Counted from the stretch's first letter, positions 22,846 through 40,556 are shown. The stretch: DNA of 64,000 bases from Sphaerisporangium sp. B11E5 (GCF_039871875.1 NZ_JBDPMD010000008.1:108422-172421), one strand, 5' to 3'. Notes: a model not told the origin generated them from the sequence alone. Program-made: numbers and translations.

Positions 22846-23463
22846 ATGCCTTCGTGGTTGCTGCGTTTCGGTGTGGTCTGCGGAGTCCTGACCGGTCTCA
22901 CGCTCGGCCCACCCGCCCTGGTCGAGGTCTTCACCGGCGAGACCACCGCGACGAGCTTCGTCATCGGCCTCGGCACCGTCTTCGGCCCCCCGGCCCTGAC
23001 CGCCCTCTACCTGCACCACGGCCTCGCGGCGGACCGGTTCTCCGCCGTCGCGTACGCGATGAACATCCTCGGCCTCACCTTGTTCGGCGCCGTCGCGTTC
23101 AGCCTGAACATCGTGCTCTTCCACCTCGACCAGCCCACCGTCGCCCGCCTGCTCGCCGGCCCGGCGCGGCTCGCCCTGCTCACCGCCGCCGTGGTCTTCG
23201 TCGCAGGCACCGTGCTGTTCGCCGCCTCGATGCTCCGTTCCCGCAGGTTCCCCCGCGTCCCCGTCTACGCCTACGCCGTCTCCCTCCCCCTGCTGGCCCT
23301 CCTCGCCCGCCTCCCCGACACCCCGCTGACCAGCGCCGTGCACGTCACGGCCGCCGCCGCCCTGATCTGGCTCTCCCTGTCCGCCTGGCCGGGGACGGGG
23401 GGCATTGCGGTGGCCCGGCGCGGCGGGACAGAATCAGGTCACGTCACTCGGGGGAGAGGCTGA
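22846..23463 (+). CDS. Hypothetical membrane protein (5-6 TM)
   Basis: Hydrophobic ORF with RBS GGAGG before the ATG at 22846. Confidence 0.5.
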   Translation: MPSWLLRFGVVCGVLTGLTLGPPALVEVFTGETTATSFVIGLGTVFGPPALTALYLHHGLAADRFSAVAYAMNILGLTLFGAVAFSLNIVLFHLDQPTVARLLAGPARLALLTAAVVFVAGTVLFAASMLRSRRFPRVPVYAYAVSLPLLALLARLPDTPLTSAVHVTAAAALIWLSLSAWPGTGGIAVARRGGTESGHVTRGRG

Positions 23464-23521
23464 GGCGTCACGAGCGGGGCGGGTTCCGGGTCGTGTCGGC
23501 CGGTGCGCGAAAGGCTTCACA

Positions 23522-26500
23522 GTGGTGTTCCAGCGGCGGGGGCGGCGCGTCGCCGAGGCGGTGCGCCGCATCACGGCCGCACAGGACTGGGACGAGTACG
23601 CCGCCGCCGTCCGGGAGTGCCCGCCTGAGCTGTTGCGGCCGGTGGAGGAGGTGCTCGTCGAGGGGTTGCGGCGGGCCAGGGAGGCCGAGGGGGACTCCGC
23701 GGACGTCCGCGCCTTCGAGCGGCTCACCTGGGCCCTCAACGCCTACCGCACCGGGCGTGCCACCGGCGGGTGGCCGTTCGGTGAGCCGTACCCCGGCGCC
23801 GTGGACCTCGCCGGCCCGCTGCGGGTCGTCGTCGACTCGGCCGACGCGGACGAGGTGCGCCGGGCCGTCGCCGAGCACCCTGAGCTGCTCACCCCGGAGA
23901 CCGACGCCCTGCTGGCCGGGCTGCAGGGCGACCTGGAGGGCGCGTTCGAGCAGGAGTCCGCACATCAGGTGGCCCGGCGCCGGCGCATGCTGGCCGGGCT
24001 GCGGCGCACCGGCGAACTGGAGGACGGCGAGTTCGTCCCCGCCGAGGAGTCCGAGCGGGAGATGCTCGGCCTGCTGTCCGGCACGCAGGGGGCGCTCGCG
24101 ACATACCGGTGGACCGGCGACGACACCGCGCTCGACCGGGCGGCGGGGCTCGCCCGGCGCATGACGGGGCACCGCATGTGGCACTCGCTCGACCGGGTGG
24201 CCCGGGCGTCCCTGGTGCACCAGGTCGCGATCGCCCTGCAGGACCGGTACGAGCGACAGGGCGAGGCCGCCGACATCGAGGCGGCCGCGCACCTGCTCGG
24301 GGTCAACGCCGCCACGTTCCCCGTGGACCACGTCGACCGGCCCGGCGCCGTCGGCAACTTCGGCAACGCCCTGCGGCTGCGGTTCCGCGAGTCCGCCGAC
24401 CCCTCCGACCTCGACGCCGCGGTGCGGGAGCTGGAGGACGCGACCGTGACGTTCGGCCGTGACGACCCGTTCGGCCCGCTGTCGCTGAACAACCTCGGCA
24501 ACGCGCTGCTCGACCGGTACCTGATCCGCGCCGACGGCGCCGACCTCGACCGGGCGATCGCCGCGTTCACCCTGGCCACCCGAGCCCACGCGGACGAGGA
24601 GTACCCCGTCTACCTGAACAACCTCAGCCGCGGCGCCCTGCACCGGTACCTGCGTGACGGAGCCGCCGGTGACCTGCGTCTGGCACAGGAGACCGCGGAA
24701 CGCGCACTCGCGGCGGAAAGCGCGTCGCAGCGGCACTACCACCTGGCTCACGCGGCCGAGGTGCTGCGCGCACGGTTCCACCAGGACCGTGACGTGGCCC
24801 TGCTGCGCCGGGCCCGCGCCCTCGTGACGGAGGCGCTCGAACTGGTCCCGCACGGCCCGGGCACTCCCCGGCACACCTTGGTCCGCGAGCTGATCGACGA
24901 CGACCTCGCCGCCGTCGCCGCCGGAACCGAGCCGCGTCCCCTGCGGGAGAGCCTCAGCGGCCTCACCCCCGGCCCGCCCGGCCCGTACGACGCCCTGCGC
25001 GAGCAGGTGAACTCGCTGGTGCTGCGGGAGGACCACCTCGGCGACCCCGCCGACCTGGAGCGCCTGATCGCCCTGCTGGAACGGGCCGTGGACACCGTGC
25101 CGCCCGACCGGCCCGAGCACGCGGGGTTCCTCAACAGCCTCGGGGCGTCCCTGCACGACCGTTACGCGCGCGACGGCGACCCCGCCGACCTGGAGCGGGC
25201 CGTCGCCGTGCTGGGGCGGGCCGCGCGCCTCGGCCCCGGCAGCGCGCCGGCGTCGTCCAACCTGGGTCTCGCCCTGCTGAAGCGCCACCTGCGCACCGGG
25301 GAGCCCGCCGACCTGGACCTGGCGGTGGGGCACATGGAGGAAGCCGTACGGCGTGCCCCCGGCGACGCGACGTACCTGTCCAACCTGAGCGAGGTGCTGC
25401 GCAGCCGGGCCGAGCACACCGGGAGCGTCGCCGACCTGGACCGCGCGGTCACCCTGGCAGGGGACGCGGTGCGCGCCGGGACCACCGGGCGCGGGCGGAC
25501 GGCGACGCACCTCGCCAACCTCGGCAGCGCCCACCAGTTGCGTGCCGAGCGCACCGGCGCCGAGGCCGACCTGGACGAGGCGGTCACCTACCTGGACCGG
25601 GCCGCGCGTACCGTCCCCGCCGGCCACACCGCCGAGGTGGGCATCTGGTCGAACCTGGGCAACGCCCTGCGGATCCGCTACGAACGCACCGGCGAGGCCG
25701 CCGACCTGGACCGGGCGATCGAGGCGGGCCGCCACGCCGTCGGCGCCACCGCGCGCGACCACATCGACGGCGCGATGGCCAGGTCCAACCTGGCGAACGC
25801 CCTCCAGCACCGCCACCTGAGGAACGGAGCCCCTGCGCAGGCCGGCCGGGATGACGGTGTCCCATCGGACGGTGTCCCATCGGACGGTGTCCGGGAGGGT
25901 GTCCTTGACGCGGCGGCCGGCCATGGCACGTCCGACCTCGACGAAGCCATCGGGCATCTGTACGCCGCCGTGCGCGGGCTGCCCGCCGGGCACCCCTTTC
26001 TCGCCAAGTGCCTGTCCAACCTGGCACTGGCACTGGAGGACAGGTTCGAGCGCGGCGGCGACCCCGCCGACCTGGACGAGGCGCTGGCCCGCCTGGAGGA
26101 GGCCGTGCGGATCAGCCCGGCGGGCTCGGCGGGCCGGTGGATGTATCTGTCCAACCTCGCCAACGCGCTGCGCTCCAGGTTCACCCATGCCGGGGACCTC
26201 GCCGCCCTGCGGCAGGCGATACGCCACCTCGACGACATCCTCGCCGCGGCGCCGACCGACCACCCGAACCGTGCCGCCTACCTGACCAACCTCGGCAGCG
26301 CCCTGTCCGCCCTGCACGACCACGACGGCGACCCCTCACACCTGGACCGCGCGGTCGCCTCGTGGCGCGCCGCCGCCGAGCTGCCCGCCGCGGCCACCGA
26401 GCAGCGCATGCGGGCCGCCGTCCTGTGGGGTGCGCGGGCCCGGACCCCGGAGGCCGCCGCGGACGGCCGCGCCGCCGCCGTACGGCTGCTGCCCCGGCTG

Positions 26501-27922
26501 GCCTGGCACGGCCTGACCCCGGCGACCCGGCGCCGGCACCTGACGCAGTGGCCGGGTATGGCGCGGGCCGCCGCCGAGGCCGCGATCACGGCGGGCCGCG
26601 TCACCGAGGCGGTGGAGCTGCTGGAGCTCGGCCGGTCCATCCTGTGGTCCCAGACCCTGCGGCTGCGCACCGACCTCACCGCGCTGGAGCGGGCCGCTCC
26701 CGAGCTCGCCGCCCGCCTCGCGGAGATCCGGCACGTCCTGGACGCCCCCGCCGAGGACCCCGACGGCACCGCCGGGCGCAGGACCCGGCTGGCCCGCGAG
26801 TGGGACGACCTGGTGGAGCGGGTCCGGGGGCTGGACGGCTTCGCCAACTTCCTGCGCGCCGTCCCGTACGCCGAGCTGCGCCGCGCGGCGGACGGCGGCC
26901 CCGTCGTGATCGTCAACGTCGGCACCGGCCGGTGCGACGCCCTGATCGTCACGTCCGGCGCGGAGGACCCCCTGCTGGTGCCCCTGCCCGGCCTGCGGGC
27001 CGGGGACGCCGACGCGCGGACCCTCGCCTGGCTGACCGCCCTGCTCCGCGTGGACGAGGGCGACCGCTCACGGACGGCCCTGGTCAACCTGCGCCAGACC
27101 CTCGCCGCCACCCTGGAATGGCTCTGGGAGACGGTCGCGTCCCCCGTCCTCACGGCCCTCGGCGCCGAGCCGGGGACCCGGTTGTGGTGGTGCCCCACCG
27201 GCCCTCTCGTGCTGCTCCCGCTGCACGCCGCGGGGGCCCGCGACGGCGCGTCGGCGCTCGACCGGGTGGTCTCCTCCTACACCCCCACCCTGGACGCCCT
27301 CATCCGCGCCCGCCGCAGACCCCCGCGGGGCGACCCGCGCCTGCTGGCCGTCGGCATGTCCCGCACCCCGGGGCAGCCGCCGCTGCCCGCCGTGGCCGGC
27401 GAGCTCGCCGAGATCGCCCGGCGCCGCGCCGTCACCACCCGCCTGGTGGACGGCGACGCCACCCGCCGCCGGGTGCTCGAGGCGCTCGCCGAGCACGAGT
27501 GGGCGCACCTGGCCTGCCACGGCACCCAGAACCTGCTCGACCCGATGACCGCCGCCGTCCACCTGCACGACGGCCCGCTCACGGTGGCCGACATCGCGGC
27601 GAGACCGCTGGAGCACGCCGAGCTGGTCTGCCTGTCGGCCTGCCAGACCGCCGTCGGCGGCGTCGGCCTGCTGGACGAGGCCGTGCACCTCGCCGCCGCC
27701 CTGCACGTCGCCGGGTACCGGCACGTCGTCGCCACCCAGTGGTCGATTCCCGACGACGACGCGCCCCGCCTGGCGGCCCACCTGTACGAGACGCTCACCG
27801 CGGACGGCCGCCCCGACGCCGCCCGCGCAGCCGCGGCCCTCCACCAGGCCACCCTCGCCCTGCGCGCCGCCCACCGCAGCCGCCCCGACCTGTGGGCACC
27901 GTACCTGCACATCGGCCCGTAG
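23522..27922 (+). CDS. TPR-repeat protein with C-terminal CHAT (caspase-like HetF-associated) protease domain, ~1466 aa
   Basis: At least 10 degenerate ~45-aa repeats centred on ADLDRAV/I…NLG/SNL. C-terminal CHAT dyad candidates are His in EWAHLACHGTQ and Cys in LVCLSACQTAVGG. No Walker A motif seen. Start codon uncertain (GTG 23522). Confidence 0.75.
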   Translation: MVFQRRGRRVAEAVRRITAAQDWDEYAAAVRECPPELLRPVEEVLVEGLRRAREAEGDSADVRAFERLTWALNAYRTGRATGGWPFGEPYPGAVDLAGPLRVVVDSADADEVRRAVAEHPELLTPETDALLAGLQGDLEGAFEQESAHQVARRRRMLAGLRRTGELEDGEFVPAEESEREMLGLLSGTQGALATYRWTGDDTALDRAAGLARRMTGHRMWHSLDRVARASLVHQVAIALQDRYERQGEAADIEAAAHLLGVNAATFPVDHVDRPGAVGNFGNALRLRFRESADPSDLDAAVRELEDATVTFGRDDPFGPLSLNNLGNALLDRYLIRADGADLDRAIAAFTLATRAHADEEYPVYLNNLSRGALHRYLRDGAAGDLRLAQETAERALAAESASQRHYHLAHAAEVLRARFHQDRDVALLRRARALVTEALELVPHGPGTPRHTLVRELIDDDLAAVAAGTEPRPLRESLSGLTPGPPGPYDALREQVNSLVLREDHLGDPADLERLIALLERAVDTVPPDRPEHAGFLNSLGASLHDRYARDGDPADLERAVAVLGRAARLGPGSAPASSNLGLALLKRHLRTGEPADLDLAVGHMEEAVRRAPGDATYLSNLSEVLRSRAEHTGSVADLDRAVTLAGDAVRAGTTGRGRTATHLANLGSAHQLRAERTGAEADLDEAVTYLDRAARTVPAGHTAEVGIWSNLGNALRIRYERTGEAADLDRAIEAGRHAVGATARDHIDGAMARSNLANALQHRHLRNGAPAQAGRDDGVPSDGVPSDGVREGVLDAAAGHGTSDLDEAIGHLYAAVRGLPAGHPFLAKCLSNLALALEDRFERGGDPADLDEALARLEEAVRISPAGSAGRWMYLSNLANALRSRFTHAGDLAALRQAIRHLDDILAAAPTDHPNRAAYLTNLGSALSALHDHDGDPSHLDRAVASWRAAAELPAAATEQRMRAAVLWGARARTPEAAADGRAAAVRLLPRLAWHGLTPATRRRHLTQWPGMARAAAEAAITAGRVTEAVELLELGRSILWSQTLRLRTDLTALERAAPELAARLAEIRHVLDAPAEDPDGTAGRRTRLAREWDDLVERVRGLDGFANFLRAVPYAELRRAADGGPVVIVNVGTGRCDALIVTSGAEDPLLVPLPGLRAGDADARTLAWLTALLRVDEGDRSRTALVNLRQTLAATLEWLWETVASPVLTALGAEPGTRLWWCPTGPLVLLPLHAAGARDGASALDRVVSSYTPTLDALIRARRRPPRGDPRLLAVGMSRTPGQPPLPAVAGELAEIARRRAVTTRLVDGDATRRRVLEALAEHEWAHLACHGTQNLLDPMTAAVHLHDGPLTVADIAARPLEHAELVCLSACQTAVGGVGLLDEAVHLAAALHVAGYRHVVATQWSIPDDDAPRLAAHLYETLTADGRPDAARAAAALHQATLALRAAHRSRPDLWAPYLHIGP
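25853..25895. repeat. 15-bp tandem repeat GACGGTGTCCCATCG x2.8 inside the CHAT gene (encodes GVPSDGVPSDGV)
   Basis: Exact adjacent copies are visible in the sequence. Confidence 0.7.
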
Positions 27923-27940: not shown

Positions 27941-28333
27941 ATGACGCCCGAGGAACGCAGCGAGCCGCTCACCGAGGGGTGGGCGCTGGCGTTGTGGTGC
28001 GAGGAACTGCCCCGCCTGCGCGCCGACGCCGAGGCGGGCGGCTGGACGGTGCCTCTGGAACGGCAGGCCGCCGCGGTGGCCGAGGGCGGCTCCGCGGCGA
28101 CCGCGTGGGAGGAGCTCGGCGTCTCCATGGCGGGCGGCCACATCGTGCCCGACCCCGCGATCCGCACCCGGGGCGCGGTGGTCGTCGTGCCCGGGCAGGA
28201 CCCGGTCCGCCTCACCGGCGACTACGCTTGCCCCCACCGCCGCTGCCCCCGCCGCGCCACCCGCGACCACCACGGCCGCCCCCCGGCATGCGCCCTCGAC
28301 GGCGCCCCGATGCGCTTCGTCCCCACCTCCTGA
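27941..28333 (+). CDS. Small Cys/His/Arg-rich protein (130 aa), hypothetical
   Basis: Strong [12 protein letters not shown] 6 nt upstream and very high GC3. C-terminus is YACPHRRCPRRATRDHHGRPPAC. Lies 18 nt after the CHAT stop. Confidence 0.55.
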   Translation: MTPEERSEPLTEGWALALWCEELPRLRADAEAGGWTVPLERQAAAVAEGGSAATAWEELGVSMAGGHIVPDPAIRTRGAVVVVPGQDPVRLTGDYACPHRRCPRRATRDHHGRPPACALDGAPMRFVPTS

Positions 28334-29163
28334 TGGAGGCCCTCCTCGGCGAGCTCGGCCGCAGGATCGCCGACCGCTGGCTCGTGCAGCTCGTGCTGCC
28401 CGGCCTGTTGTGGCTGGCCGCGGCCGTCACCGCGCTGACCCTCGGCCACGCCCACGCCCTGGACGGCGGACGCCTGCTGCGCCGGGCCGACCTCGCCGCC
28501 ATGGCCGTCCCCGCCCGTCCCGTCCCGATCGCGGTGACCATCGCCGCCGCCCTGGCCCTGGCCGCCCTCGCGGGGCTGGCCGCGCAGGCCGCGGCCCGCG
28601 CGCTGCAGTCGATCTGGGTCGGCCAGTGGAGACCGCCCGCCGCCGCTCTTGGCGCGCGGCTCACCGCCCGCCGCGCCGGGGACGCCCGCGCGAGGTACGC
28701 CCGCCCGCCCTTCCCCGAGCGTTACCTCCCGGCCCGTCCCACCTGGATCGGCGACCGCCTGCGCCTGGCCGGTGAGCGCGTCGACGCCCAGTACGGCCTG
28801 CGTCTCCCTGTCATCTGGACCGCCCTGTGGCAGGTCATGGACGACGCGGCCCGTGCCCCCGTGCGCGACGCCCGCGACGACTTCGACCAGGCACTGAGAC
28901 TCGCCGCCTGGGGTGTGCTCCACACCGCCGTGGGCCTCGCGTGGTGGCCGGGCCTGCTCGCCGGCGCCCTGACGTTCGCCGTCGCCTGGCGCAGGGGCCG
29001 CGACGCCGCCGCCACGCTGGCCGACGTCGTCGAGGCGACCGTCGACACCCATCACCGCGCCCTGGCCGAGGCCCTGGGCGTCGCGTTACCGCACGGCCGG
29101 CTTACGCCCGCGGAAAGCGCATCGATCAACGACCTTCTTCACAAAGGCCATTCCCGCCCCTGA
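28333..29163 (+). CDS. Hypothetical polytopic membrane protein (277 aa)
   Basis: Start ATG overlaps the upstream stop (TGATG). At least 3-4 TM helices. Confidence 0.55.
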   Translation: MEALLGELGRRIADRWLVQLVLPGLLWLAAAVTALTLGHAHALDGGRLLRRADLAAMAVPARPVPIAVTIAAALALAALAGLAAQAAARALQSIWVGQWRPPAAALGARLTARRAGDARARYARPPFPERYLPARPTWIGDRLRLAGERVDAQYGLRLPVIWTALWQVMDDAARAPVRDARDDFDQALRLAAWGVLHTAVGLAWWPGLLAGALTFAVAWRRGRDAAATLADVVEATVDTHHRALAEALGVALPHGRLTPAESASINDLLHKGHSRP

Positions 29164-29291: not shown

Positions 29292-31019
29292 GTGGGAGCC
29301 GTTCACGGAAGGTCGTACGACGTGGAGCCGAGGGCATGGGAGCCGTTGGGGGACGGCGATCCCCGGACACTGGGGTCGTACCGGCTGCTCGGGCGTCTCG
29401 GGGAGGGCGGCATGGGGATCGTCTACCTCGGTGAGGACGTCCACGGGCTGAAGGTCGCGATCAAGGTGGTGCGGAAGGAGTACGCCGCGTCGCCGGCCTT
29501 CCGGCGGAGGTTCCAGGCCGAGGTGGAGGCGGCGCGGCGCGTCCGGTCGTTCTGCACCGCGCCGGTGCTCGCATGGCGGCTGGACGACTCGCGGATCCAC
29601 CTGGTCACCGAGTACGTCGACGGTCCCGACCTCGGGCGCGCGGTGGACGAGCGGGGGCCGTTCGAGGGCTCCAACCTGGAGGCCCTCGCGGTGGGCACGG
29701 CCACGGCGCTCGCCGCCATCCACCAGGCCGGGCTGGTGCACCGCGACTTCAAGCCGGAGAACGTGCTGCTGTCCCCGGTCGCGCCCCGGGTCATCGACTT
29801 CGGGCTGGCCCGGCCCCTGGACATGACCAAGCGCCTCACCGAGCCGGGCAACATCGTGGGCACGCCGCGGTACATGGCGCCGGAGGTGCTGGACCCCGCG
29901 CGGGTGACCACGGCGTACGACGTCTTCGCCTGGGGCGGTGTCATGGTGTTCGCCGCCACGGGACGCCCGCCGTTCGACGGCGACAGCCTGCTGCACCTGC
30001 TGCACCGCATCACCCACGACCAGCCCGACCTGGACGGCCTGCCCGAGGGCCTCGCCAAGGTCGTGGCCGCCGCGATGGCCAAGGACCCCGCCGAGCGGCC
30101 CACCGCCTGGGACCTGCTCACCACGCTGGTCGGCCCCGGCGCCGACCCCGCGCGCACCGCCGAGATGGTCCGCATGGACCTGACCCGCGCCGAGATCGTC
30201 CTCTGCGGCCCGCAGGCCCGCGCCGAGTACGCCGACCGGCTGACGCGGTCGCTGCGCGAGGACGGCCTGCCCGTGCGCTCGGCCTACGAGGCGCCGGACG
30301 GCGACCAGCGGCTGGACGGCGCGCCGGCCCTCGTCGCCCTGATGACGCCGGACGAGCCGGAACCCGTGGCCCGCGCGCTGAGCGACGCCCGGCGCCTCGG
30401 CGTCCCGGTGCTGCGTGTGCTGCTCGCCGGGCACGAGCCCGGCCACGTGCGCTTCTACGACGCCAGGGACGGCTCGCTGCCCGGCGAGGCCGAGATCGCG
30501 TGGCTGCGGCGCCTGTGCGAGACGCCGCCAAGACCCGCGCGTGCCGTCCCCGCCGCGGGCCTGGAGAGGTTGCGCCGTCTCACCGCCGCCGGGGACCTGG
30601 TGGCCGCCGACACCCTGACCACGGCGCTCCTGCTCGACGCCGCGGGGCGCACCGAGGAGGGCTGGATGGCGCAGTCGGACGGCGCACGCCTGACCACCCC
30701 GTTCCTGCGCGACATCGAGGCCGCCTGGGCGGACGGCACGGCGGGGCGGCACGGGTTCGCCGCGCAGCTCGGCCGGTACTGGGGCCACCAGCGCGCCGGC
30801 ACGCGGACCGATTTCACCGAACTGGCACGGGCGCTCGGCTGGACTGTGAACTTATCCGCAAAAAATGGGACATATCCCCAATGGGCTACCCGCTCGGATT
30901 ATCGGCCGGGTTTCTTTCCCACGCTCCGCAATCCATCCCGAGAGTTGCAAAATGGATGGTACGACCGGTGGACGCTGACGGTCATGGCGGTTCACCATCA
31001 GCTTCGGAGACGCCTGTGA
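29292..31019 (+). CDS. Ser/Thr protein kinase (Hanks-type) with ~300-aa C-terminal non-kinase domain
   Basis: GRLGEGGMGIVY…AIKVV…HRDFKPENVLL…DFGLA…GTPRYMAPE. Start uncertain (GTG 29292). Confidence 0.8.
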   Translation: MGAVHGRSYDVEPRAWEPLGDGDPRTLGSYRLLGRLGEGGMGIVYLGEDVHGLKVAIKVVRKEYAASPAFRRRFQAEVEAARRVRSFCTAPVLAWRLDDSRIHLVTEYVDGPDLGRAVDERGPFEGSNLEALAVGTATALAAIHQAGLVHRDFKPENVLLSPVAPRVIDFGLARPLDMTKRLTEPGNIVGTPRYMAPEVLDPARVTTAYDVFAWGGVMVFAATGRPPFDGDSLLHLLHRITHDQPDLDGLPEGLAKVVAAAMAKDPAERPTAWDLLTTLVGPGADPARTAEMVRMDLTRAEIVLCGPQARAEYADRLTRSLREDGLPVRSAYEAPDGDQRLDGAPALVALMTPDEPEPVARALSDARRLGVPVLRVLLAGHEPGHVRFYDARDGSLPGEAEIAWLRRLCETPPRPARAVPAAGLERLRRLTAAGDLVAADTLTTALLLDAAGRTEEGWMAQSDGARLTTPFLRDIEAAWADGTAGRHGFAAQLGRYWGHQRAGTRTDFTELARALGWTVNLSAKNGTYPQWATRSDYRPGFFPTLRNPSRELQNGWYDRWTLTVMAVHHQLRRRL

Positions 31020-32986
31020 AGTTGTTCGAGGACCTACGAGTGATCATCACACTCGTCGGCCTGATTTTACTCACGTTGGTATGGATCATCACCGGCCACG
31101 AATTCAGCACCCTGGTCATCGTGCTGCTCACCCTCGCTGTCGTCTTCGGCGCCCCGATGCTCGCGTGGCGTCTCTACAACCGGTGGATGATCCATGTGCC
31201 GGGGGACAGCATCGGCGTCGTCCACCGCAGGCTCGGGCGGCTGCACCCCGGGGACATCTACGGGGTGAGCCTCTACGGCTCGCCGGGTCCCCAGGCCACG
31301 GTGCTCGGCCCGAACGCGGTCGTCTGGCTTCCGCCGTTCGTCTACTCGGTGGAGTTCGTCCCGCTGGTCGTCATCCCGATCGACTCGATCGGCGTGGTCA
31401 GCGCCAAGGTCGGCGCGCTCCTGCCCGCGGGCAGGGTGCTCGGACGCCACGTCGAGTGCGACTACTTCCAGAAGGGCCACAACTTCCTCGCCGGGGGCGG
31501 CGAGCAGGGGCCCCAGCTCGCGGTCCTCCAAGGCGGAGGCCGTTACGCCATCAACCCGTACATGTTCGACGTGCTGGTGAAGCCGGTGACCTACATCCGC
31601 CCCGGCAACATCGGGGTGGTCGTCGCGCGGGTCGGGGAGAACCTCCCGCACGGCCGGCCGTTCGGCCGCCACGTCGAGTGCGACTACTTCCAGGACGGGC
31701 CGGGCTTCCTCGCCCGCGGCGGGCAGCAGGGCCCGCAGCTCGCCGTCCTGCAGGGCGGCAACCGGTACAACATCAACCCGTACATCTTCGACGTGATCAC
31801 CGAGGACAACGTCGAGTCCAGCCGCACGGGGCTGACCAAGGAGGACCTGAAGCTCATCTCGCTGCTGGACGGCAACACGGGCGTCGTCGTGGTCCGCGAG
31901 GGCGCCCCCGTCCCCGACGGGACCGAGCTCGCCCCGCGGATCCCCGGCCACAACCGGTTCCAGCTCCCCTGGGTCTTCCTGGAGCGGGGCGGCCGGCAGG
32001 GCACCCAGACCGAGACCCTGCCCGGCGGCGCCGACTACGCCATCAACCCCTGGTTCGCCCGCGTCGTGCGCATCCCGACAAGGGAGCTGATCCTGGAGTG
32101 GGCGGACAAGGACGGTCCCGACGACCGGTACGACTCGGCGTTGCAGCCGATCCCCGTGACCATCGAAGGGCACACCTTGCGCGTGCACCTCACCCAGACC
32201 CTGCGCATCCCCGCGGAGTCGGCGCCGTTGCTGGTCAGGAGGTTCGGCGAGCAGGAGACCGCGGACGCCGACCAGTTCGGCTTCGTGGCCAGGCCCGCGC
32301 CGGTCAAGCGGTTCGTGGAGCGGGTCCTCGGCTCGGTGGTGATCGGATACTTCTCCTCCATCTCCGCCGAGTACCGCATCACCGACTTCGTGGACAGCCC
32401 GCAGCGTGTGCAGGCGGACCTGCAGACCAGCATCGAGCGCAAGCTGGAGGAGTGGTCGGTCGTCGCCACCAACACCACCATCGGGCGTATCGAGTTCGAG
32501 GACTCCAAGTTCAACGACATGCGCCAGACCCGGGTCGTCGCGCGGGAACAGCACCCGCTGCTCGAACAGGAGGAGCGCAACGCGCGGATCCGGCGCCGCA
32601 TAGAACTGGACGACCTGGAGGTGGACCGGGCCCGCCGCGAGGTGGAGGTCGGCACCGAGGTGCGGGTGCTCATCCAGATGCTCGGCCGCGAACAGGTCGC
32701 CAAGGAGCGCTTCATCGCCCTGCTCACCAAGATGGGCGTCCCGTCGGTGATCGCGTCCGGCGGCGACGCGGACTCCATCACCCAGTGGATCACCCCGACG
32801 GCGCTGGTGGAGGCCATCAACAGGGCGATGAGCGAAGGCAGGGGGGCGATCGCCGGCGGCACGGCGAACGGCGCCCCGCCGGCGCACCCGGACGGCACCC
32901 AGGAGGACGTCCCTGAGCGGCGCCCTCATTCGTCCACGGGCTCGGCCGACCCCTCGGGGGAGACCTTCCAGGCGCCGGGGGTGTAG
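31016..32986 (+). CDS. Flotillin/SPFH-like membrane protein with triplicated N-terminal module and C-terminal coiled coil
   Basis: GTG start overlaps the kinase stop (GTGA), with GGAG 8 nt upstream. Short N-terminus then a TM helix. IGVV…G…LP…GR…GPQLAVLQGG.RY.INPY.FDV module is repeated 3 times. Charged coiled-coil EQEERNARIRRRIELDDLEVDRARREVEV. Family assignment is tentative. Confidence 0.55.
   Translation: MKLFEDLRVIITLVGLILLTLVWIITGHEFSTLVIVLLTLAVVFGAPMLAWRLYNRWMIHVPGDSIGVVHRRLGRLHPGDIYGVSLYGSPGPQATVLGPNAVVWLPPFVYSVEFVPLVVIPIDSIGVVSAKVGALLPAGRVLGRHVECDYFQKGHNFLAGGGEQGPQLAVLQGGGRYAINPYMFDVLVKPVTYIRPGNIGVVVARVGENLPHGRPFGRHVECDYFQDGPGFLARGGQQGPQLAVLQGGNRYNINPYIFDVITEDNVESSRTGLTKEDLKLISLLDGNTGVVVVREGAPVPDGTELAPRIPGHNRFQLPWVFLERGGRQGTQTETLPGGADYAINPWFARVVRIPTRELILEWADKDGPDDRYDSALQPIPVTIEGHTLRVHLTQTLRIPAESAPLLVRRFGEQETADADQFGFVARPAPVKRFVERVLGSVVIGYFSSISAEYRITDFVDSPQRVQADLQTSIERKLEEWSVVATNTTIGRIEFEDSKFNDMRQTRVVAREQHPLLEQEERNARIRRRIELDDLEVDRARREVEVGTEVRVLIQMLGREQVAKERFIALLTKMGVPSVIASGGDADSITQWITPTALVEAINRAMSEGRGAIAGGTANGAPPAHPDGTQEDVPERRPHSSTGSADPSGETFQAPGV
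31380..32050. repeat. Intragenic ~222-bp tandem triplication (e.g. CACGTCGAGTGCGACTACTTCCAG at 31448 and 31670)
   Basis: 24-nt exact DNA repeat at 222-bp spacing. Protein repeats are ~74 aa. Confidence 0.7.
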
Positions 32987-35079
32987 GGGTACGGCGACGT
33001 GGGCCGTTCCCGCTCGCGGTCCCAGACGTACGAGGCGTACTGGTCGAGCGCGAAGTACGGGGCGTCCAGCCGGGTGGCCCAGTGGGCCACCCAGGCGTGG
33101 GCGGTCAGCGTGCGGGGGTGCCGCTTCCCGTGGCGGTGCCGCAGCAGGAGTCTGAGCATGTCGGTCAGGCGGAAGGCATCCATGGCCTGGCCGGCTTCGC
33201 CCGTCCACCGGGCGAGCTGGGAGAACAGGGCGACCCCGGTGTCGTCGTCGAGGAGGCCCTGGGCGACCCGCAGGGAGAGCAGCTCCTTGGCGAGGTCCCT
33301 GGCGTCCCCTGGGCGGCCGGCCTCCCCGGTCCAGCGGATGAGCTGCACGGCGACGGCCATGGTGTCCGGATCCGTCATGTCCGGCGGGACGCGCGCCTCC
33401 AGGATCCGGGCGCACAGGTCGCTCGCCCGCGCCGGGTCGCCCGCCTCGCCGGTCCAGTACGCCTCCTCGGCTCGCATGCGCAGCACCCAGGCATCAAGCT
33501 CGTCGCCGTGCGCGTCGGCGAGCCGCCGGTACTGGTCGCGGGCGGCCTCGGGGTCGCCGGCCTCGCCGGTCCAGTGGGCGAGCTCGGAGCGCGCGTCCAG
33601 GGTGTCGGGGTGCCGGGGACCGGCGGCCCGCTCCCACGCGGCGGCGATGTCCGCGAACAGATCGCGTGCCCGGGCCGCGTCCCCCGACTTCCCGGTCCAG
33701 TGCGCGAGCTTGGCGCGCACGGCGAGGGTCGCCGGGGCGTCGCGGCCGGCGTCCCGTTCCCGCACCCAGGCGAGCACGGTGTACAGGTCGCGCGCCCCGG
33801 CCGCGTCACCGGTCGCGCCCCTCCAGTAGGCCAGGTTGCCCCGGGTGATCAGCGTCTCCGGGTCCTCGTACCCCGTGACCCGCTCCCGGACCGGCAGCAG
33901 CGCCTCGTACATGGCGAGCGCCTCCTCCCCGCGGCCGGACCTGCCGGTCCAGTAGGCGAGGTTGGCCCGCGTGGTCAGCGTCTCCGGGTGCTCCTCCCCG
34001 AGCACGACCTCACGCACGGGCAGCAGCTCGGCGTACCGCGCCCGCGCCCCCTCGGGATCCCCCGCCTCGCCCGTCCAGCGCGCCAGGTTGGCCCACACCG
34101 TCAGCGTCTCGACGTGCTCCTCCCCGAGCACCCGATTGCATACGGGCAGCAGCTCCGCGTACAACTCCCGTGCTCCGGCCGCGTCCCCCGCCCGTCCCGT
34201 CCAGTACGCGAGGTTGGCCCGCGTGGTCAACGTCTCCGGATGCTCCACCCCGAGCACCCGCCCACTCGCCCCCACCAGCGCCGCGTACTGCTCCCGCGCC
34301 CCCGCCGCGTCCCCCGTCTCCCCGGCCCAGTACGCCAGCCACCCCCGGTTCCGCAGCGTCACCGCGTCCTCGGCCTCCCCGGTCACCGGGGTTCCCCCGT
34401 CCCCGGCCGGCCCGCGTCCGCTCCCGGCGGGAGATTCCTTGTCCCCGGCCGGCCCGCGTCCACTCCTGGCGGGAGATTCCTTGTCCCCGGCCGGCCCGCG
34501 TCCGCTCCTGGCCGGAGTGTCCTCGTCCCCGGCCGGCCCGGCCTCGTCCACCCCAGGCATGCCTTCGGCCACCGCGGGCCCCGCCTCGGACACCTCCTCG
34601 GCCACCTCGGCCACCGGCGCGGCCAGCGGCATCGCCGCGGCCGGCCTATCGGCCGGAGGTGGCCCGGCGGTCCGCGCCGGGGGCGGTCCGGGCGGGGCAT
34701 CCGCCGGGGGCCGTCCGGCCGCCTCCTCCGCCGGGGCCCTCTCCGGAGGCGTCCCCGGCTCGCCCCGCTCGAGGTCGGCCACGATCGCCGCGAGCTCGCG
34801 CGCGTACGGCGGGCCGGCGTCCGCGGCGGCCTCCAGCGTGAGACGCGCCGCGCGCATGGTGTCCAGGCCGGGCAGCCCGCCGGCGGCCTCCTGCTCCAGC
34901 CGGACGAGGGCCGTGGTGTCGCCCCCCGCCGAGGCCACCAGGTCGCGCAGCCGTCCCGCCGCCGGGCCGCCCGCGGCCCCGGCACTCAGGCCCCACACCA
35001 GATGGGCCACGGCCCGCCCGGCGAGCTCCTCGAACTCGGTCACCCTCTCGATGTAGCGCACCCTCGCCCGCGCCGCCAC
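32926..35079 (-). CDS. Tetratricopeptide-repeat protein (~11 TPR_10/12-like units with LAYWTGEAGD core) with Pro/Gly-rich N-terminal region
   Basis: Repeated motif EHPETLTTRANLAYWTGRAGDAAGAREL… GTG start at complement 35079. 3' end overlaps the convergent flotillin-like gene by 61 nt. Confidence 0.7.
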   Translation of the reverse strand: MAARARVRYIERVTEFEELAGRAVAHLVWGLSAGAAGGPAAGRLRDLVASAGGDTTALVRLEQEAAGGLPGLDTMRAARLTLEAAADAGPPYARELAAIVADLERGEPGTPPERAPAEEAAGRPPADAPPGPPPARTAGPPPADRPAAAMPLAAPVAEVAEEVSEAGPAVAEGMPGVDEAGPAGDEDTPARSGRGPAGDKESPARSGRGPAGDKESPAGSGRGPAGDGGTPVTGEAEDAVTLRNRGWLAYWAGETGDAAGAREQYAALVGASGRVLGVEHPETLTTRANLAYWTGRAGDAAGARELYAELLPVCNRVLGEEHVETLTVWANLARWTGEAGDPEGARARYAELLPVREVVLGEEHPETLTTRANLAYWTGRSGRGEEALAMYEALLPVRERVTGYEDPETLITRGNLAYWRGATGDAAGARDLYTVLAWVRERDAGRDAPATLAVRAKLAHWTGKSGDAARARDLFADIAAAWERAAGPRHPDTLDARSELAHWTGEAGDPEAARDQYRRLADAHGDELDAWVLRMRAEEAYWTGEAGDPARASDLCARILEARVPPDMTDPDTMAVAVQLIRWTGEAGRPGDARDLAKELLSLRVAQGLLDDDTGVALFSQLARWTGEAGQAMDAFRLTDMLRLLLRHRHGKRHPRTLTAHAWVAHWATRLDAPYFALDQYASYVWDRERERPTSPYPYTPGAWKVSPEGSAEPVDE
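34399..34545. repeat. 42-bp tandem repeat (~3.5 copies) GTCCCCGGCCGGCCCGCGTCCGCTCCCGGCGGGAGATTCCTT encoding PARSGRGPAGDKES
   Basis: Near-identical adjacent copies are visible. Confidence 0.75.
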
Positions 35080-35185: not shown

Positions 35186-35455
35186 ATGCTGCCCATCGTG
35201 CAGTGGGTGGATGATTTACTCGGCCTCGTCCAGGAGCTCCTGGCGGCCTTCGGCGCCGACGTGAGCCTCCTCACGCTCCGCAGGATCTTATGGCTGCTCG
35301 TGGGCGTTCTCCTGCTGTACTGGACCGCCAAATTGATCAAATCACTTCTGTCGTTCGGCGAAAGTGCGTACGGCTTCGCCCGCCGCCAGATCAGGAGAAG
35401 TTCTGGCGCGAGACGGACAAGATGGCGCCCTTCATCAGCTTCGTTCTCCTGGTGA
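35186..35455 (+). CDS. Small hydrophobic ORF (strong coding signal 35186-35395); possibly the frameshifted N-terminus of the downstream membrane protein
   Basis: GC3 is above 85% in this frame up to ~35395. After that, coding signal switches to the +1 frame that contains the ATG at 35422. Confidence 0.3.
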   Translation: MLPIVQWVDDLLGLVQELLAAFGADVSLLTLRRILWLLVGVLLLYWTAKLIKSLLSFGESAYGFARRQIRRSSGARRTRWRPSSASFSW

Positions 35456-36471
35456 TCGCTTACGCCTTCTACGGCCAGGAACAGAAACGCACGCTGCCCG
35501 ACGCCCTTCTCCACCTCGGAAAGGAGCAACTGGCGGAGGTGCTGCCGGCGGCGATCGTGACGCAGTGGGTGTTGCTGATCGGGTTCTGGCTGCTGTTCGG
35601 CCTGCTCCTCGGAACGCCGTTCGGGAAGCTTGCCTCGCCGCTCACCACGATGGCCTTCCTGCTGGTGCTCACGGGCTACCTGGCGGTGTTCACCCCGGCG
35701 CTGATGGCGTTGTTCTCGGGCGGCGCCGGGCGGGCGGAGATGGGCGTGTTCGCGCTGGCCGTACCGCTGATGTACGCCGGCTACGTCCTGGAGGGCCCGG
35801 AGCGGCGGCTGGAGGTGGCCCGGCTGCGTCGCGAGATGCGGGCCCAGCAGGGGCTCCCCGAGGTGCGGCGCGGGCCGGTGCGCCGGCTGCTGTGGGGGAG
35901 CGAGGAGGGGCCGCGTTCGCGCTGGCTGCCGCCGCCGGGGTATGTCGCGGCCGGGGTCTTCGCCGTGTTCCTGCTGTTCTCGCTCCTGGTGGGGGTCGTC
36001 TACGGCGTCAAGGCGTTCGGTGAGCCGCGTCCGCCGTCACCGGACGAGGTCGTGCGCGGCGTGCTGGTCCTGATGACGTTCCTGTTCCTGCTGTCGTGCT
36101 TCTCCTTCAGGACCACCGCGCTGACAGATCTGAACCCGCCACCGGCGCTGTTCCACTTCGTGGACCTCAGCCTGGCGCTGTCCGCCTGCGTGGTGGCCGT
36201 GGTGGGCCTGCCGGACTCGCCGGTGACGCTCGGCCCCGTGCCGCCGTGGATGATCGCGGTGGGGCCGCCGCTGGTGGTCGCGGCGCTGATCCTCGGCATC
36301 CATCTGCGGGAGCAGCGCGCGGACACGCCGCGCTGGGGTGTCTGCCTGGCGGTCAGCGTGGGGGTGGCCCTGCTGGTGTGGCCGCTGAAGATCCTGCTCA
36401 TCGAGGTGTTGCCGCCGTACCTGCGCCTGTTGCCGCTGCCGGGCTGGGTGCCGCTCGCCGGGGGGTGGTGA
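35422..36471 (+). CDS. Hypothetical polytopic membrane protein (~349 aa)
   Basis: MAPFISFVLLVIAYAFYG… with about 9 TM helices and good GC3. Confidence 0.6.
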   Translation: MAPFISFVLLVIAYAFYGQEQKRTLPDALLHLGKEQLAEVLPAAIVTQWVLLIGFWLLFGLLLGTPFGKLASPLTTMAFLLVLTGYLAVFTPALMALFSGGAGRAEMGVFALAVPLMYAGYVLEGPERRLEVARLRREMRAQQGLPEVRRGPVRRLLWGSEEGPRSRWLPPPGYVAAGVFAVFLLFSLLVGVVYGVKAFGEPRPPSPDEVVRGVLVLMTFLFLLSCFSFRTTALTDLNPPPALFHFVDLSLALSACVVAVVGLPDSPVTLGPVPPWMIAVGPPLVVAALILGIHLREQRADTPRWGVCLAVSVGVALLVWPLKILLIEVLPPYLRLLPLPGWVPLAGGW

Positions 36472-38894: not shown

Positions 38895-40556
38895 ATGAGC
38901 ACGACCACCGCCGGGGTCATCTTCGTCGCGTCGCTCGTCGCGGTGCTCGCCCTGGTGCACAAGCCGCTCGGCGACCACATGTACCGGGTGTACACCGGGG
39001 CGCGCCACCTCGCCGTCGAACGCGTCATCTACCGCCTTCTCGGGGTGCGCCCCGACGCCGAGCAGAGATGGGGCGTCTACGCCCGCAGCCTGCTGGCGTT
39101 CTCGATCGTCTCCATCGGGTTCGTCTACCTGACGCAACGCGTGCAGGACAAGCTGTTCCTGAGCCTCGGCCTCCCCGCCGTCCCCGACCACATCGCGTGG
39201 AACACGGCGATCAGCTTCGTCACCAACACCAACTGGCAGGCGTACTCCGGCGAGAACACCATGGGGCACCTGACCCAGATGGCCGCGCTCGCCGTGCAGA
39301 ACTTCGTCTCCGCCGCGGTCGGCATGGCCGTCGCCATCGCCCTGGTCCGCGGGTTCGCCCGCAGCCGCAGCGACACCATCGGCAACTTCTGGGTGGACCT
39401 GGTGCGCGGCATCGTCCGGGTCCTGCTGCCCGTGGCCTTCGTCGGCGCGCTGATCCTGGTGGCCGGCGGCGTGGTGCAGAACCTCACGGGCCCGCACGAC
39501 GTCACCACCCTCACCGGCGGCGTTCGGCACATGACCGGCGGCCCGGTGGCGAGCCAGGAGGTCATCAAGGAACTCGGCACCAACGGCGGCGGCTTCTACA
39601 ACACCAACTCCGCCCACCCGTTCGAGAACCCGACGACCTGGACCGACTGGTTCGAGATCTTCCTGCTCCTGGTCATCCCGTTCAGCCTGCCGCGCACCTT
39701 CGGCAGAATGGTCGGCCAGGTCCGCCAGGGCCACGCCATCCTCGCCGTGATGGCCGTCATCGCGCTCGGCAGCGTGGCGCTGACCAACGTGTTCGAGCTG
39801 AGCGGCGGGGCCACCGTGCCGCAGGCCGTCGGCGCGGCGCTGGAGGGCAAGGACGTCCGGTTCGGCGTGTCGAACTCCGCGACGTTCGCCGCGGCCACCA
39901 CGCTGACCTCCACCGGCGCGGTCAACTCGTTCCACGACTCGTTCACGCCGCTCGGCGGCATGATGACGCTGTTCAACATGATGCTGGGCGAGGTCGCGCC
40001 CGGCGGCGTCGGCGCGGGCCTGTACGGCATGCTCGTGCTCGCCGTGATCACGGTGTTCGTGGCGGGGCTCATGGTCGGCCGCACCCCCGAGTACCTGGGC
40101 AAGAGGATCGGTGCGCGCGAGATCAAGCTCGCCTCGATGTACTTCCTGGTCACGCCGGTCCTGGTGCTCGCCGGCACCGCGGTGGCGATGGCCAACGAGG
40201 CGGGCCTCGCGGCCATGCTGAACAGCGGCCCGCACGGCTTCTCCGAGATCCTCTACGCCTTCACCAGCGCGTCCAGCAACAACGGTTCGGCGTTCGGCGG
40301 CGTCACGGTCAACACCCCGTTCTACGACGTGGCGCTGGGTCTGTGCATGGTGCTCGGCCGGTTCCTGCCGATCATCTTCGTGCTCGCCCTCGCGGGTTCG
40401 CTCGCCCGGCAGGCCCCGGTACCGGAGTCGGCGGGCACCCTGCCCACGCACCGGCCGCAGTTCGTCGGCCTGGTCGTCGGGGTGACGATCGTGCTGGTCG
40501 CGCTGACCTTCCTCCCCGCCCTCGCGCTCGGACCGCTCGCAGAAGGAATCCACTGA
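38895..40556 (+). CDS. kdpA: Potassium-transporting ATPase subunit A
   Basis: Full-length KdpA-like sequence with selectivity-filter-like …[13 protein letters not shown]…. Confidence 0.9.

Follow-up and report, generated by a model that had tools for sequence, protein, structure and literature searches.

The cages built by SPFH proteins and the vault are abundant and structurally striking assemblies. The vault is a soluble particle with two half-shells joined at their N-terminal repeats, and GUN4, a further component relevant here, is a tetrapyrrole-binding (porphyrin-binding) regulator. According to the titles of PDB 9bw6 and PMC12280208, the vault holds an NAD+-using enzyme, PARP4, docked to its shell, and a membrane-associating motif is not described for MVP, according to a vault paper (PMC13100048). 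Bacterial proteins with MVP-like predicted folds, some of them annotated as band 7, were reported by Daly et al. (2013) and in a 2019 preprint by Sokolskyi; they come from gliding or filamentous bacteria (Myxococcales, Cytophagales, Oscillatoriales and Herpetosiphon) and were identified because their sequences resemble that of eukaryotic MVP. In the searched text of Kaur et al. 2020 (PMC7159879), Band7-like domains are superstructure-forming parts of VMAP conflict systems, and GUN4 occurs fused to kinases, caspases, trypsin and TIR; it is also proposed there that GUN4 allosterically regulates the fused enzymes according to tetrapyrrole level. Within the searched text of the 2020 and 2021 papers by Kaur et al., GUN4 is termed cyanobacteria-specific, and neither a GUN4-SPFH gene pair nor MVP-like repeats are described. 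We found no description of the GUN4-SPFH pairing in the literature searched, and neither GUN4 nor Band 7 comes up in a 2025 overview of TIR signalling systems.

The locus analysed here lies in a window (the whole stretch of DNA examined) of 64,000 nucleotides from Sphaerisporangium sp. B11E5, in which a Ser/Thr kinase gene (gene A) is followed by an SPFH gene (gene B) (Table 1). Our preferred reading is that the two products would form a half-vault-like cage seated on the membrane, with GUN4 as the docking element for exchangeable effectors, and would probably act as a conflict or abortive-infection module; we give this reading a probability of about one half.

Table 1. Position, strand and basis of the features of the gene pair and its neighbours (coordinates of the window).
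Feature	Coordinates	Strand	Basis
TPR-CHAT protease-like neighbour, 1505 aa, membership uncertain	23405..27922	+	Pfam CHAT, E 3.8e-48
Gene A, encoding the 575-aa partner: Ser/Thr kinase domain, then degenerate TIR-like and GUN4-like domains	29292..31019	+	ORF, Pfam
Hanks-type kinase domain, aa 30-277, catalytic motifs intact	29379..30122	+	Pfam, translation
Middle domain, aa 291-420, degenerate TIR homologue	30162..30551	+	tblastn, alignment
GUN4-like domain at the C-terminus, aa 425-575, the part of the pairing that is conserved	30564..31016	+	Pfam GUN4, aa 425-537
Coupling junction: GGAG 31006-31009, 6-nt spacer, GTG 31016-31018, TGA stop 31017-31019	31006..31019	+	Sequence
Gene B, 656-aa membrane-anchored SPFH protein with MVP-like repeats	31016..32986	+	Translation
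Two hydrophobic helices, aa ~7-25 and ~32-50, predicted membrane hairpin	31034..31165	+	Kyte-Doolittle, AF2
R1, aa 58-118, degenerate short copy without the HVECDYFQ...GGxQG insert	31187..31369	+	Four-copy alignment
R2 (aa 119-193) and R3 (aa 193-267)	31370..31816	+	DNA repeat, HMM
R4, aa 282-357, head of the SPFH domain	31859..32086	+	R2/R3 HMM, Band_7 overlap
SPFH/Band_7 core, aa 327-524	31994..32587	+	Pfam
Long charged helix, aa 497-572, counterpart of the wall/cap helix of SPFH cages and MVP	32504..32731	+	DSSP; Foldseek alignments to MVP over 608-650 columns
Convergent TPR neighbour, 717 aa, membership uncertain	32926..35079	-	Pfam TPR_12, TPR_10

The product of gene B is 100% identical to a protein of this strain annotated as 'SPFH domain-containing protein', and the first-pass annotation, which had called it SPFH-like, was right in this respect: it matches Band_7 (PF01145; 38.5 bits, the cut-off being 23.6; E 1.6e-9), as almost all its homologues are annotated to do, and by structure comparison it has the SPFH fold. 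No Pfam family besides Band_7 was found in it at E<=0.1. The AF2 model (mean pLDDT 85.3, above 95 across the repeats) predicts an N-terminal membrane anchor, an alpha/beta SPFH fold and, after it, a long helix, in agreement with the long charged coiled coil first described; DSSP places helices at residues 497-556 and 558-572, after which a short conserved segment leads into a disordered tail. The single transmembrane helix proposed at first does not stand, because the N-terminus has two hydrophobic helices (Kyte-Doolittle peaks 2.67 and 2.47; AF2 helices 2-27 and 30-57), and most homologues have one N-terminal hydrophobic segment.

Between anchor and core a beta module of ~74 aa is repeated in tandem. 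The triplication noticed earlier corresponds to three clear copies, but a degenerate copy, R1, which forms beta strands at high pLDDT in the AF2 model, precedes them, and the last, R4, already belongs to the SPFH domain, of which it forms the head. At the DNA level, the copies spanning 31361-31573 and 31583-31795 share 74% identity at a spacing of 222 nt, and a third copy, which is partial, follows 270 nt beyond the second; R2 and R3 share 64% amino-acid identity (HMM scores 158 and 160 bits), and an HMM made from these two only recovers R4 at E 3.5e-11, overlapping the start of the Band_7 match. By sequence comparison the modules are shown to be homologous to one another. Three modules are found in 79 of the 120 closest homologues and, among 271 representatives, in 107, with two modules in 114; the three-module state is one of the two commonest in a large family and is not peculiar to this gene.

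Structure comparison of the predicted model with Foldseek returned MVP as four of the top five matches (E 1e-11 to 1e-10, 608-683 aligned columns), followed by canonical SPFH cage proteins over ~310-350 columns, flotillin being a weaker structural match than prohibitin, erlin or HflC. The model thus shows a resemblance to MVP in fold-level architecture, and the arrangement that had seemed unfamiliar from flotillins fits the MVP plan by fold, here with a membrane anchor added. Membership in flotillin/YqiK was considered and rejected, the protein having no Pfam Flot match. Pfam matches to Vault, MVP-repeat or MVP_shoulder are likewise absent from the SPFH protein, isolated repeats gave none at E<=10, and profile searches of PDB sequences did not find MVP. 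The likeness of the modules to MVP repeats is structural only, and could reflect convergence of small beta domains.

Gene A (GC3 0.92) encodes a kinase (Pkinase, E 1.2e-40) that looks active by its motifs, since GEGGMG, VAIK, HRD (HRDFKPEN), DFG and APE (MAPE) can all be read from the translation. This domain matches the PADLOC models of PD-T4-6, a single-gene kinase defence, and of Mad6 (E 2e-57), over aa 24-280, a match that covers only the generic Hanks kinase region and is equalled in score by many unrelated kinase models; the SPFH protein has no PADLOC match. The middle domain matches, by tblastn, the TIR-bearing partner proteins of other loci, from which it differs in the alignment by a 7-residue deletion and the loss of a conserved Trp; where the 'REILEGQ' motif has its conserved Glu, the residue is Asp in gene A, Glu at locus L001 and Ala at locus L009. 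No Pfam TIR match was obtained for this protein, whereas 37 of 49 homologues match TIR_2. The C-terminal domain matches GUN4 (PF05419) at E 8.9e-10, with 39.3 bits against a cut-off of 29.2.

The two genes overlap by GTGA within the junction cggagacgcctGTGAag. The early call of a GTG start overlapping the kinase stop is retained, although the GGAG, which had been placed 8 nt upstream, is separated from it by 6 nt. In the NCBI annotation of the identical protein (P0001) the start lies 8 codons later, giving 648 aa. Sequence comparison supports the overlapping GTG well, because the closest orthologue, from S. aureirubrum, is annotated to begin at the homologous position, with an ATG that forms part of an ATGA overlap, and because the overlap is 4 nt long (ATGA or GTGA) at 28 of 48 related loci and TGATG at another 5 (33 of 48 with a 4-nt or 1-nt overlap). 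Our analysis corrects the local annotation in this start codon and in the domain content of the kinase protein.

The family comprises 1,443 representatives at E<=1e-3, with 2-13 modules per protein (7-13 in cyanobacterial relatives), and the pair is present across actinobacteria and cyanobacteria. A GUN4-like domain is encoded directly upstream on the same strand at 48 of 51 genomic loci, and 47 of 49 upstream partner proteins carry it at the C-terminus, while the enzyme at the N-terminus varies (domains matched: TIR_2 in 37, TIR in 24, ThsB_TIR in 12, Pkinase, Trypsin_2 and VMAP-M8 in 3 each, TCAD9 in 1). The GUN4 partner and the SPFH protein are the sole families common to most loci, called in 45 of 52; others reach at most 8. 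Cyanobacterial relatives have GUN4 or TIR-GUN4 genes directly upstream, vWA, caspase, PP2C and kinase-GUN4 genes nearby, a C-terminal vWA domain and HTH_VMAP-M9 neighbours. One protein, P0094, is a TIR-TIR-GUN4-SPFH fusion, and another family member, P0076, joins SPFH to CHAT. The domain anatomy of the proteins, the conserved pairing of the genes, their overlap, the swapping of effectors and the existence of a fusion protein are direct observations. The pairing of kinase and scaffold put forward by the first-pass annotation holds in that the genes are tightly coupled and form a conserved pair, but the constant partner is the GUN4-like domain rather than the kinase. The proposed 'dedicated phospho-signalling or effector pair' is accordingly too narrow in its first half, because fused kinases occur in only 3 of the 49 partners and a degenerate TIR-like domain remains here; the kinase is one among several interchangeable enzymatic heads on a GUN4 adaptor.

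In our proposed mechanism, the SPFH protein, with its membrane hairpin, four stacked beta modules of ~60-75 aa, SPFH core and long helix in that order, would oligomerise on the membrane's cytoplasmic side to form a ring or cage, by analogy with HflK/C, prohibitin, flotillin, stomatin and MVP; the cytoplasmic topology is suggested by the hairpin and the soluble partner only. The extra modules would lengthen the cage wall into a half-vault that the membrane closes off. Gene A, whose translation is coupled to that of gene B, would supply an enzyme tethered to a GUN4-like domain, which may act as the adaptor docking that enzyme to the cage. The enzymatic head is interchangeable across the family, most often a TIR, here a kinase beside a decayed TIR and elsewhere a trypsin-like protease. 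Because TIR, kinase and trypsin-like enzymes are typically activated by induced proximity or oligomerisation, the cage is most likely a platform for many effector copies, which it would most likely keep inactive or sequestered. A membrane or ligand cue could then lead the cage to concentrate or release the effectors, as in abortive-infection or conflict systems, both trigger and defence role being conjectural. Since GUN4 is a regulator that binds tetrapyrroles, a ligand-sensing role is also suggested, instead of or besides docking.

Three other readings of the pair have to be weighed. The first is housekeeping phospho-signalling, in which a flotillin-like microdomain scaffold, or its clients, would be phosphorylated by the coupled kinase. 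The complete catalytic motifs, the translational coupling of the kinase gene to the scaffold gene, and the kinase-like ORFs that immediately precede the TIR-GUN4 gene at about six loci of Streptomyces and Actinomadura (tblastn E 1e-7 to 2e-10) all agree with it, as does a module-bearing relative (P0127) in a housekeeping context without GUN4, from which we conclude that the repeat-SPFH scaffold is not limited to conflict systems. Most partners, however, carry TIR domains and others proteases, family members are fused to TIR and CHAT domains, and flanking genes are not conserved between genera, suggesting a patchy, cassette-like placement; we regard this reading as unlikely. The second would make the GUN4-like domain a sensor or carrier of haem or porphyrin, the SPFH cage an organiser or reporter of a membrane tetrapyrrole site, and the enzyme the output. 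The above-threshold GUN4 match, the established porphyrin binding of GUN4 and the allosteric control proposed by Kaur et al. speak for it, but no tetrapyrrole biosynthesis or transport genes were seen beside the pair in the window and no such family recurs across loci, the hosts are mostly non-photosynthetic actinobacteria, and strict adjacency and overlap with the SPFH gene suggest a protein partner. As a full account it seems improbable, although ligand sensing and docking by GUN4 are compatible and not mutually exclusive.

The third reading treats the pair as a sub-part of a larger CHAT/TPR system (CHAT-TPR, two small ORFs and the convergent TPR gene), with the SPFH protein as substrate or anchor of the CHAT protease. 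Both Sphaerisporangium genomes carry the CHAT-TPR gene, a 130-aa ORF and the kinase and SPFH genes in collinear order on a single strand, the fusion P0076 joins SPFH to CHAT, and the CHAT domain resembles Csx29 with a score below the cut-off. Yet the CHAT gene is kept beside the pair only in the close relative L001 and CHAT was not found within 10 kb at the other 50 loci, while the two Sphaerisporangium genomes are so closely related (~80% identity) that their shared synteny weighs little. The TPR gene, which shares 61 nt at its 3' end with the SPFH gene and whose product matches NCBIfam FxSxx_TPR at E 1.4e-49, below the cut-off, is not conserved at other loci of the pair. We consider this reading quite improbable. 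That the repeats are an assembly duplication, or the SPFH ORF not a real gene, has next to no likelihood and was rejected, because the DNA copies are merely 74% identical, the same array of modules is present in hundreds of genomes that were assembled independently, the GC3 of the ORF is 0.95, and positionally equivalent modules are 60% alike between species against 45% for different modules.

Beyond the preferred reading of an effector-docking cage, a wider and more tentative view is that these proteins are bacterial membrane-capped half-vaults, whose 2-13 modules would have arisen by tandem duplication of the SPFH N-terminal beta sub-domain, and that a vault-like shell with an effector enzyme, NAD+-consuming or other, docked through a dedicated adaptor (GUN4 here) could be an immune or conflict device of ancient origin in multicellular bacteria. 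If the half-vault reading were true, it would offer a direct view of MVP-type repeats originating from an SPFH ancestor. The family bridges SPFH cages and the vault, its repeats being homologous in sequence to its own SPFH head and yet MVP-like in predicted fold and stacking, and therefore provides testable models of how vault repeats arose and of the purpose of a lengthened SPFH wall. The near-obligate, translationally coupled pairing with GUN4-TIR, kinase or protease proteins points to a candidate defence or conflict system, and suggests a possible new role for the bacterial GUN4-like domain as a cage adaptor, beyond that of a tetrapyrrole sensor.

Among the conflict systems of multicellular bacteria, the VMAP-ternary systems and those related to them (Kaur, Burroughs, Iyer and Aravind 2020, 2021) are close in content and share TIR, Ser/Thr kinase, trypsin, caspase/CHAT, TPR, VMAP-M8, TCAD9, GUN4 and Band7-like scaffolds, and hosts among filamentous actinobacteria and cyanobacteria; no vWA, MoxR ATPase, VMAP component or STAND NTPase was detected in the scanned genes that surround the window's pair. 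The partner proteins resemble TIR defence systems (Thoeris and others) in matching TIR_2 and ThsB_TIR, but unlike in Thoeris a ThsA-type sensor-effector was not seen, and known defence genes are not consistently adjacent across loci. With the canonical SPFH systems (HflK/C-FtsH, QmcA-YbbJ (NfeD), archaeal stomatin PH1511-PH1510, prohibitin and flotillin/YqiK) the protein shares the N-terminal anchor, the Band_7 core, the long C-terminal helix and a dedicated adjoining partner gene, whose product would be expected at or in the cage. The family differs in having two to thirteen extra beta modules between anchor and core, and in a GUN4-like partner with TIR, kinase or protease heads in place of NfeD or FtsH. 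Unlike the proteins of Daly and Sokolskyi, the present family is undetectable by sequence similarity to MVP, is membrane-anchored and mainly actinobacterial and cyanobacterial, and has a GUN4-effector partner. With MVP itself it has in common the order of tandem small antiparallel-beta repeats, SPFH-like shoulder and long cap helix, and the 9 repeats of MVP are comparable with the 8-13 modules of cyanobacterial relatives. Minor vault components are not encoded nearby, only 3-4 modules are present in the window's protein, the modules here are of ~74 aa with a conserved HVECDxFQDG...GGEQG insert, and an N-terminal membrane anchor of two hydrophobic helices comes before the repeats. The vault would also be alike in having an enzyme, an NAD+-using one in its case, docked to its shell.

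The SPFH gene of the window (gene B) is one half of a conserved gene pair, the other half of which is marked by a GUN4-like domain and only rarely by a kinase. Among 51 genomic loci of relatives, fetched with the trimmed core alignment as query, 48 encode a GUN4-like domain directly upstream and on the same strand, usually preceded by a homologue of the middle region of the protein of gene A, the kinase gene of the window. When 49 of the upstream proteins, the partners, were compared with Pfam, matches were found to GUN4 (47), TIR_2 (37), TIR (24), ThsB_TIR (12), Trypsin_2 (3), VMAP-M8 (3) and TCAD9 (1). The SPFH-GUN4 pairing extends beyond actinobacteria. In the cyanobacterial giants P0121 and P0124 the gene directly upstream encodes GUN4 only, in another large relative, P0126, it encodes TIR_2-GUN4, and one of these neighbourhoods also contains HTH_VMAP-M9, vWA, caspase, PP2C and kinase-GUN4 genes. 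Both halves are joined in the fusion protein P0094 (TIR-TIR-GUN4-SPFH, 948 aa), and a further fusion, P0076 (1134 aa), combines SPFH with CHAT. Word-indexed searches with the GUN4 domain retrieved two proteins from a single sequence and six from a 38-sequence profile, and in the literature on GUN4 with SPFH, Band 7 or TIR we found no account of a GUN4-SPFH gene pair. It is possible that GUN4 takes part in tetrapyrrole sensing, which would be compatible with a docking role.

Clustering of genes over the loci left only the SPFH and partner families common to most (both called in 45 of 52); flanking genes vary between genera, and no third family occurs in more than eight of the clustered loci. 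What speaks for the pair being part of a larger CHAT/TPR system is confined to local synteny shared by two close relatives, together with a single fusion. The window has a TPR-CHAT gene upstream of the pair and a convergent TPR gene whose 3' end shares 61 nt with that of the SPFH gene (see table). The CHAT domain weakly resembles CRISPR-associated Csx29; PADLOC found no match for the SPFH, CHAT and TPR proteins of the window, and the two small ORFs preceding gene A matched nothing in Pfam or NCBIfam. Further out, the 2473-aa protein looks like a polymorphic toxin or cell-surface protein, and two predicted membrane proteins sit between the TPR gene and kdpA/kdpB (38895-42700). Elsewhere, many Streptomyces loci carry a stand-alone TIR_2 protein of ~190 aa right after the SPFH gene, and in a Lentzea/Streptosporangium subset an Hsp70-like ATPase gene (~527 aa) comes next after the SPFH gene, in the same orientation, and then one for a protein of ~850 aa with no Pfam match; these two may be third and fourth components in that subgroup.

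Pkinase was found in only three of the 49 partners: the gene A product, its orthologue and a Lentzea protein. The first-pass annotation had taken the kinase-SPFH pairing to suggest a dedicated phospho-signalling or effector pair; the conserved, coupled gene pair agrees with this, and the rarity of the kinase does not. The same rarity disfavours a housekeeping pair of kinase and scaffold. At six loci (L026, L028, L029, L030, L036 and L044) a separate kinase-like ORF matching the kinase domain of the window (tblastn, E 1e-7 to 2e-10) lies ~0.3-1 kb upstream of the TIR-GUN4 gene, so that kinases recur with the SPFH-GUN4 module as separate genes besides fusions. The gene A product itself looks catalytically competent, since GEGGMG, VAIK, HRDFKPEN, DFG and MAPE are all readable in its translation, and it ends in a GUN4-like domain (Pfam, E 8.9e-10, above threshold). 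Its middle region aligns with the TIR domains of partners, with a deletion of seven residues and loss of a conserved Trp. At the position of the conserved Glu in 'REILEGQ', the orthologue retains Glu, the window protein has Asp and the kinase variant of Lentzea has Ala. Judged by sequence, this TIR-like region is decayed.

Sequence features of the window and of related loci (amino acid positions refer to the gene B protein; L-numbers are fetched loci of relatives)
Feature	Position	Strand	Remarks
Giant protein	2114-9535	-	2473 aa; CBM96, Laminin_G_3, RHS repeats
TPR-CHAT protein	23405-27922	+	1505 aa; upstream of pair, same strand
130-aa ORF	27941-28333	+	follows TPR-CHAT gene
~277-aa ORF	~28330-29163	+	follows 130-aa ORF
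Kinase gene (gene A)	29292-31019	+	ORF, 575 aa; Hanks kinase domain at aa 30-277 of the gene A protein, Pfam Pkinase E 1.2e-40
Junction elements	GGAG 31006-31009; GTG 31016; stop TGA 31017-31019	+	from sequence
SPFH gene (gene B)	31016-32986	+	656 aa
Module R1	aa 58-118	+	protein alignment; short, degenerate
Module R2	aa 119-193	+	protein alignment
Module R3	aa 193-267	+	protein alignment
Module R4	aa 282-357	+	protein alignment
Convergent TPR protein	32926-35079	-	717 aa; resembles FxSxx-system TPR proteins, below cut-off
Multi-pass membrane protein (predicted)	35422-36471	+	349 aa; no Pfam match
Multi-pass membrane protein (predicted)	36565-38547	+	660 aa; no Pfam match
TIR_2 gene after SPFH gene	L011 11072-11641; L016 11072-11656	-	also L012, L015, L017, L018, L034, L037, L050
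TIR_2 gene next to fusion P0094	L053 5792-6340	+	~190 aa
Hsp70-like ATPase and ~850-aa protein	L009 11271-15285; L033 11764-15909	ATPase: same as SPFH gene	also L007, L043, L046
Cyanobacterial relatives, 8-13 modules	L052 8001-13382; L056 6001-9996		annotated merely 'VWA domain-containing protein'

The two genes of the pair meet in a GTGA overlap (...cGGAGacgcctGTGAag; window G+C ~72%), as had been noticed at the outset. In the closest orthologue (S. aureirubrum, 80% identity) the annotated ATG lies in an ATGA overlap at the exactly homologous position, with GGAG conserved, and at 48 related loci stop and start overlap as ATGA or GTGA in 28 and as TGATG in five, the other 15 having a candidate start no more than about 40 nt from the stop. 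An overlapping GTG start and translational coupling are thus well supported by comparison of sequences. The gene B protein is 100% identical to a protein of the actinomycete Sphaerisporangium sp. B11E5 named 'SPFH domain-containing protein', whose NCBI entry of 648 aa starts eight codons downstream of the overlapping GTG (31016-31042); the orthologue and the family-wide overlap suggest that this public start was called too late.

Repeats in gene B were traced by DNA repeat search and protein HMMs. Two DNA copies (31361-31573 and 31583-31795) are 74% identical with a period of 222 nt, and a third, partial copy lies another 270 nt along. Tandem Repeats Finder reported nothing relevant in the gene, as the copies are too diverged. 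An HMM built from R2 and R3 alone detects R4 (E 3.5e-11). The Pfam Band_7 match (aa 327-524) scores 38.5 bits, the cut-off being 23.6, and its first residues fall within R4. The repeated unit is therefore a duplicate of the beta element with which the SPFH domain begins, as the first-pass annotation had proposed. Its observations stand with minor corrections, and its interpretation in part: the triplication holds for three clear copies, R2-R4, with R1 as a fourth, degenerate one, and the single transmembrane helix gives way to two N-terminal hydrophobic helices. Neither the repeats nor the gene can be an artefact, such as an assembly duplication, given that the copies have diverged, GC3 is 0.95 and the same arrays occur in hundreds of independent assemblies.

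With an R1-R3 profile, an exhaustive HMMER search yielded 796 cluster representatives at E ≤ 1e-10 and 1,443 at the looser threshold of E ≤ 1e-3. Among 271 representatives, and leaving out the degenerate first copy, the number of detectable modules is two (114), three (107), four (19), five (13), six (10) or seven to thirteen (7), which puts the window's count among the two most frequent. The greatest length (1.3-1.8 kaa) and module number (8-13) are found in members from filamentous cyanobacteria (Symploca, Iningainema), which have a C-terminal vWA; caspase, PP2C, ParA/TPR and kinase-GUN4 genes lie near these giants at L052 and L056. One six-module relative with a flotillin-like tail stands without GUN4 among housekeeping genes. 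Modules at equivalent positions in different species resemble each other more closely (60%) than do different modules (45%), which indicates that the array is old. R2 and R3 of the window protein (31370-31816) are unusually similar, with 64% identity where the family averages 48% at these two positions, and its nearest relatives (P0003-P0005) have five modules; this suggests recent duplication or gene conversion in the window's lineage.

The AlphaFold2 model of the gene B protein (120 homologues) has a mean pLDDT of 85.3, and above 95 in the modules. Major vault protein (MVP) accounts for four of the top five Foldseek matches in the PDB (9r86, 9z4w and 9mxj, also 4v60; E 1e-11 to 1e-10), with alignments of 608-683 columns that cover essentially the entire chain. 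Next come prohibitin, erlin, stomatin, HflK/C, QmcA and flotillin, whose alignments of 310-350 columns are limited to the SPFH domain and helix. Together with the Band_7 match these results bear out the SPFH-like nature of the protein, and the predicted fold is that of a canonical membrane-anchored SPFH protein in which inserted MVP-like beta domains, stacked one on another, separate the anchor from the SPFH core. By sequence the isolated modules match no Pfam family at E ≤ 10, and profile searches of PDB sequences never found MVP, the sole match being a weak one to Pyrococcus stomatin (E 0.014). The protein belongs to the SPFH superfamily; it is not a flotillin by Pfam, and its sole NCBIfam match, a sub-threshold one to cyanophycinase, is spurious. 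We found no literature account of a membrane-anchored repeat-SPFH family or of homology between module and SPFH head.

We infer the function and assembly of the pair as follows. Lateral contacts of SPFH domains and helices assemble every solved SPFH protein, and MVP as well, into a large ring or cage (PDB entries; PMC13100048). The gene B protein would be expected to do likewise, as a cage standing on its N-terminal hairpin anchor; the modules would add height to its wall, and the result would in effect be a half-vault with the membrane in place of the second half. The soluble partner and the hairpin anchor point to a cytoplasmic location. The GUN4-like domain would be the piece that binds the cage, since it is the invariant domain, its adjacency is near-obligate, stop and start overlap and a fusion protein exists; the overlap also favours stoichiometric co-synthesis of partner and SPFH protein. 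The N-terminal enzyme of the partner would be the exchangeable output. Induced proximity is what typically activates TIR NADases, Hanks kinases and proteases of the trypsin or caspase type, which makes a multivalent cage a plausible platform on which effectors are sequestered and then activated by a trigger, in the manner of abortive-infection systems. Membrane perturbation or a GUN4 ligand could serve as that trigger.

From other phyla there are reports of bona fide bacterial MVP homologues and of 'band 7 proteins that fold as MVP'. Neither sequence nor solubility places the gene B protein in the MVP family and the likeness is at fold level only, although its modelled order of repeats, shoulder and cap helix follows the MVP plan and the architecture works like that of MVP. 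Kaur et al. (2020; PMC7159879), writing on conflict systems, treat GUN4 as cyanobacteria-specific, count Band7-like domains among superstructure-forming parts and describe GUN4 fused to kinases, caspases, trypsin and TIR. These systems match the pair in domain vocabulary and in their hosts, which are filamentous, multicellular bacteria, and this match lends context in favour of the proposed mechanism.
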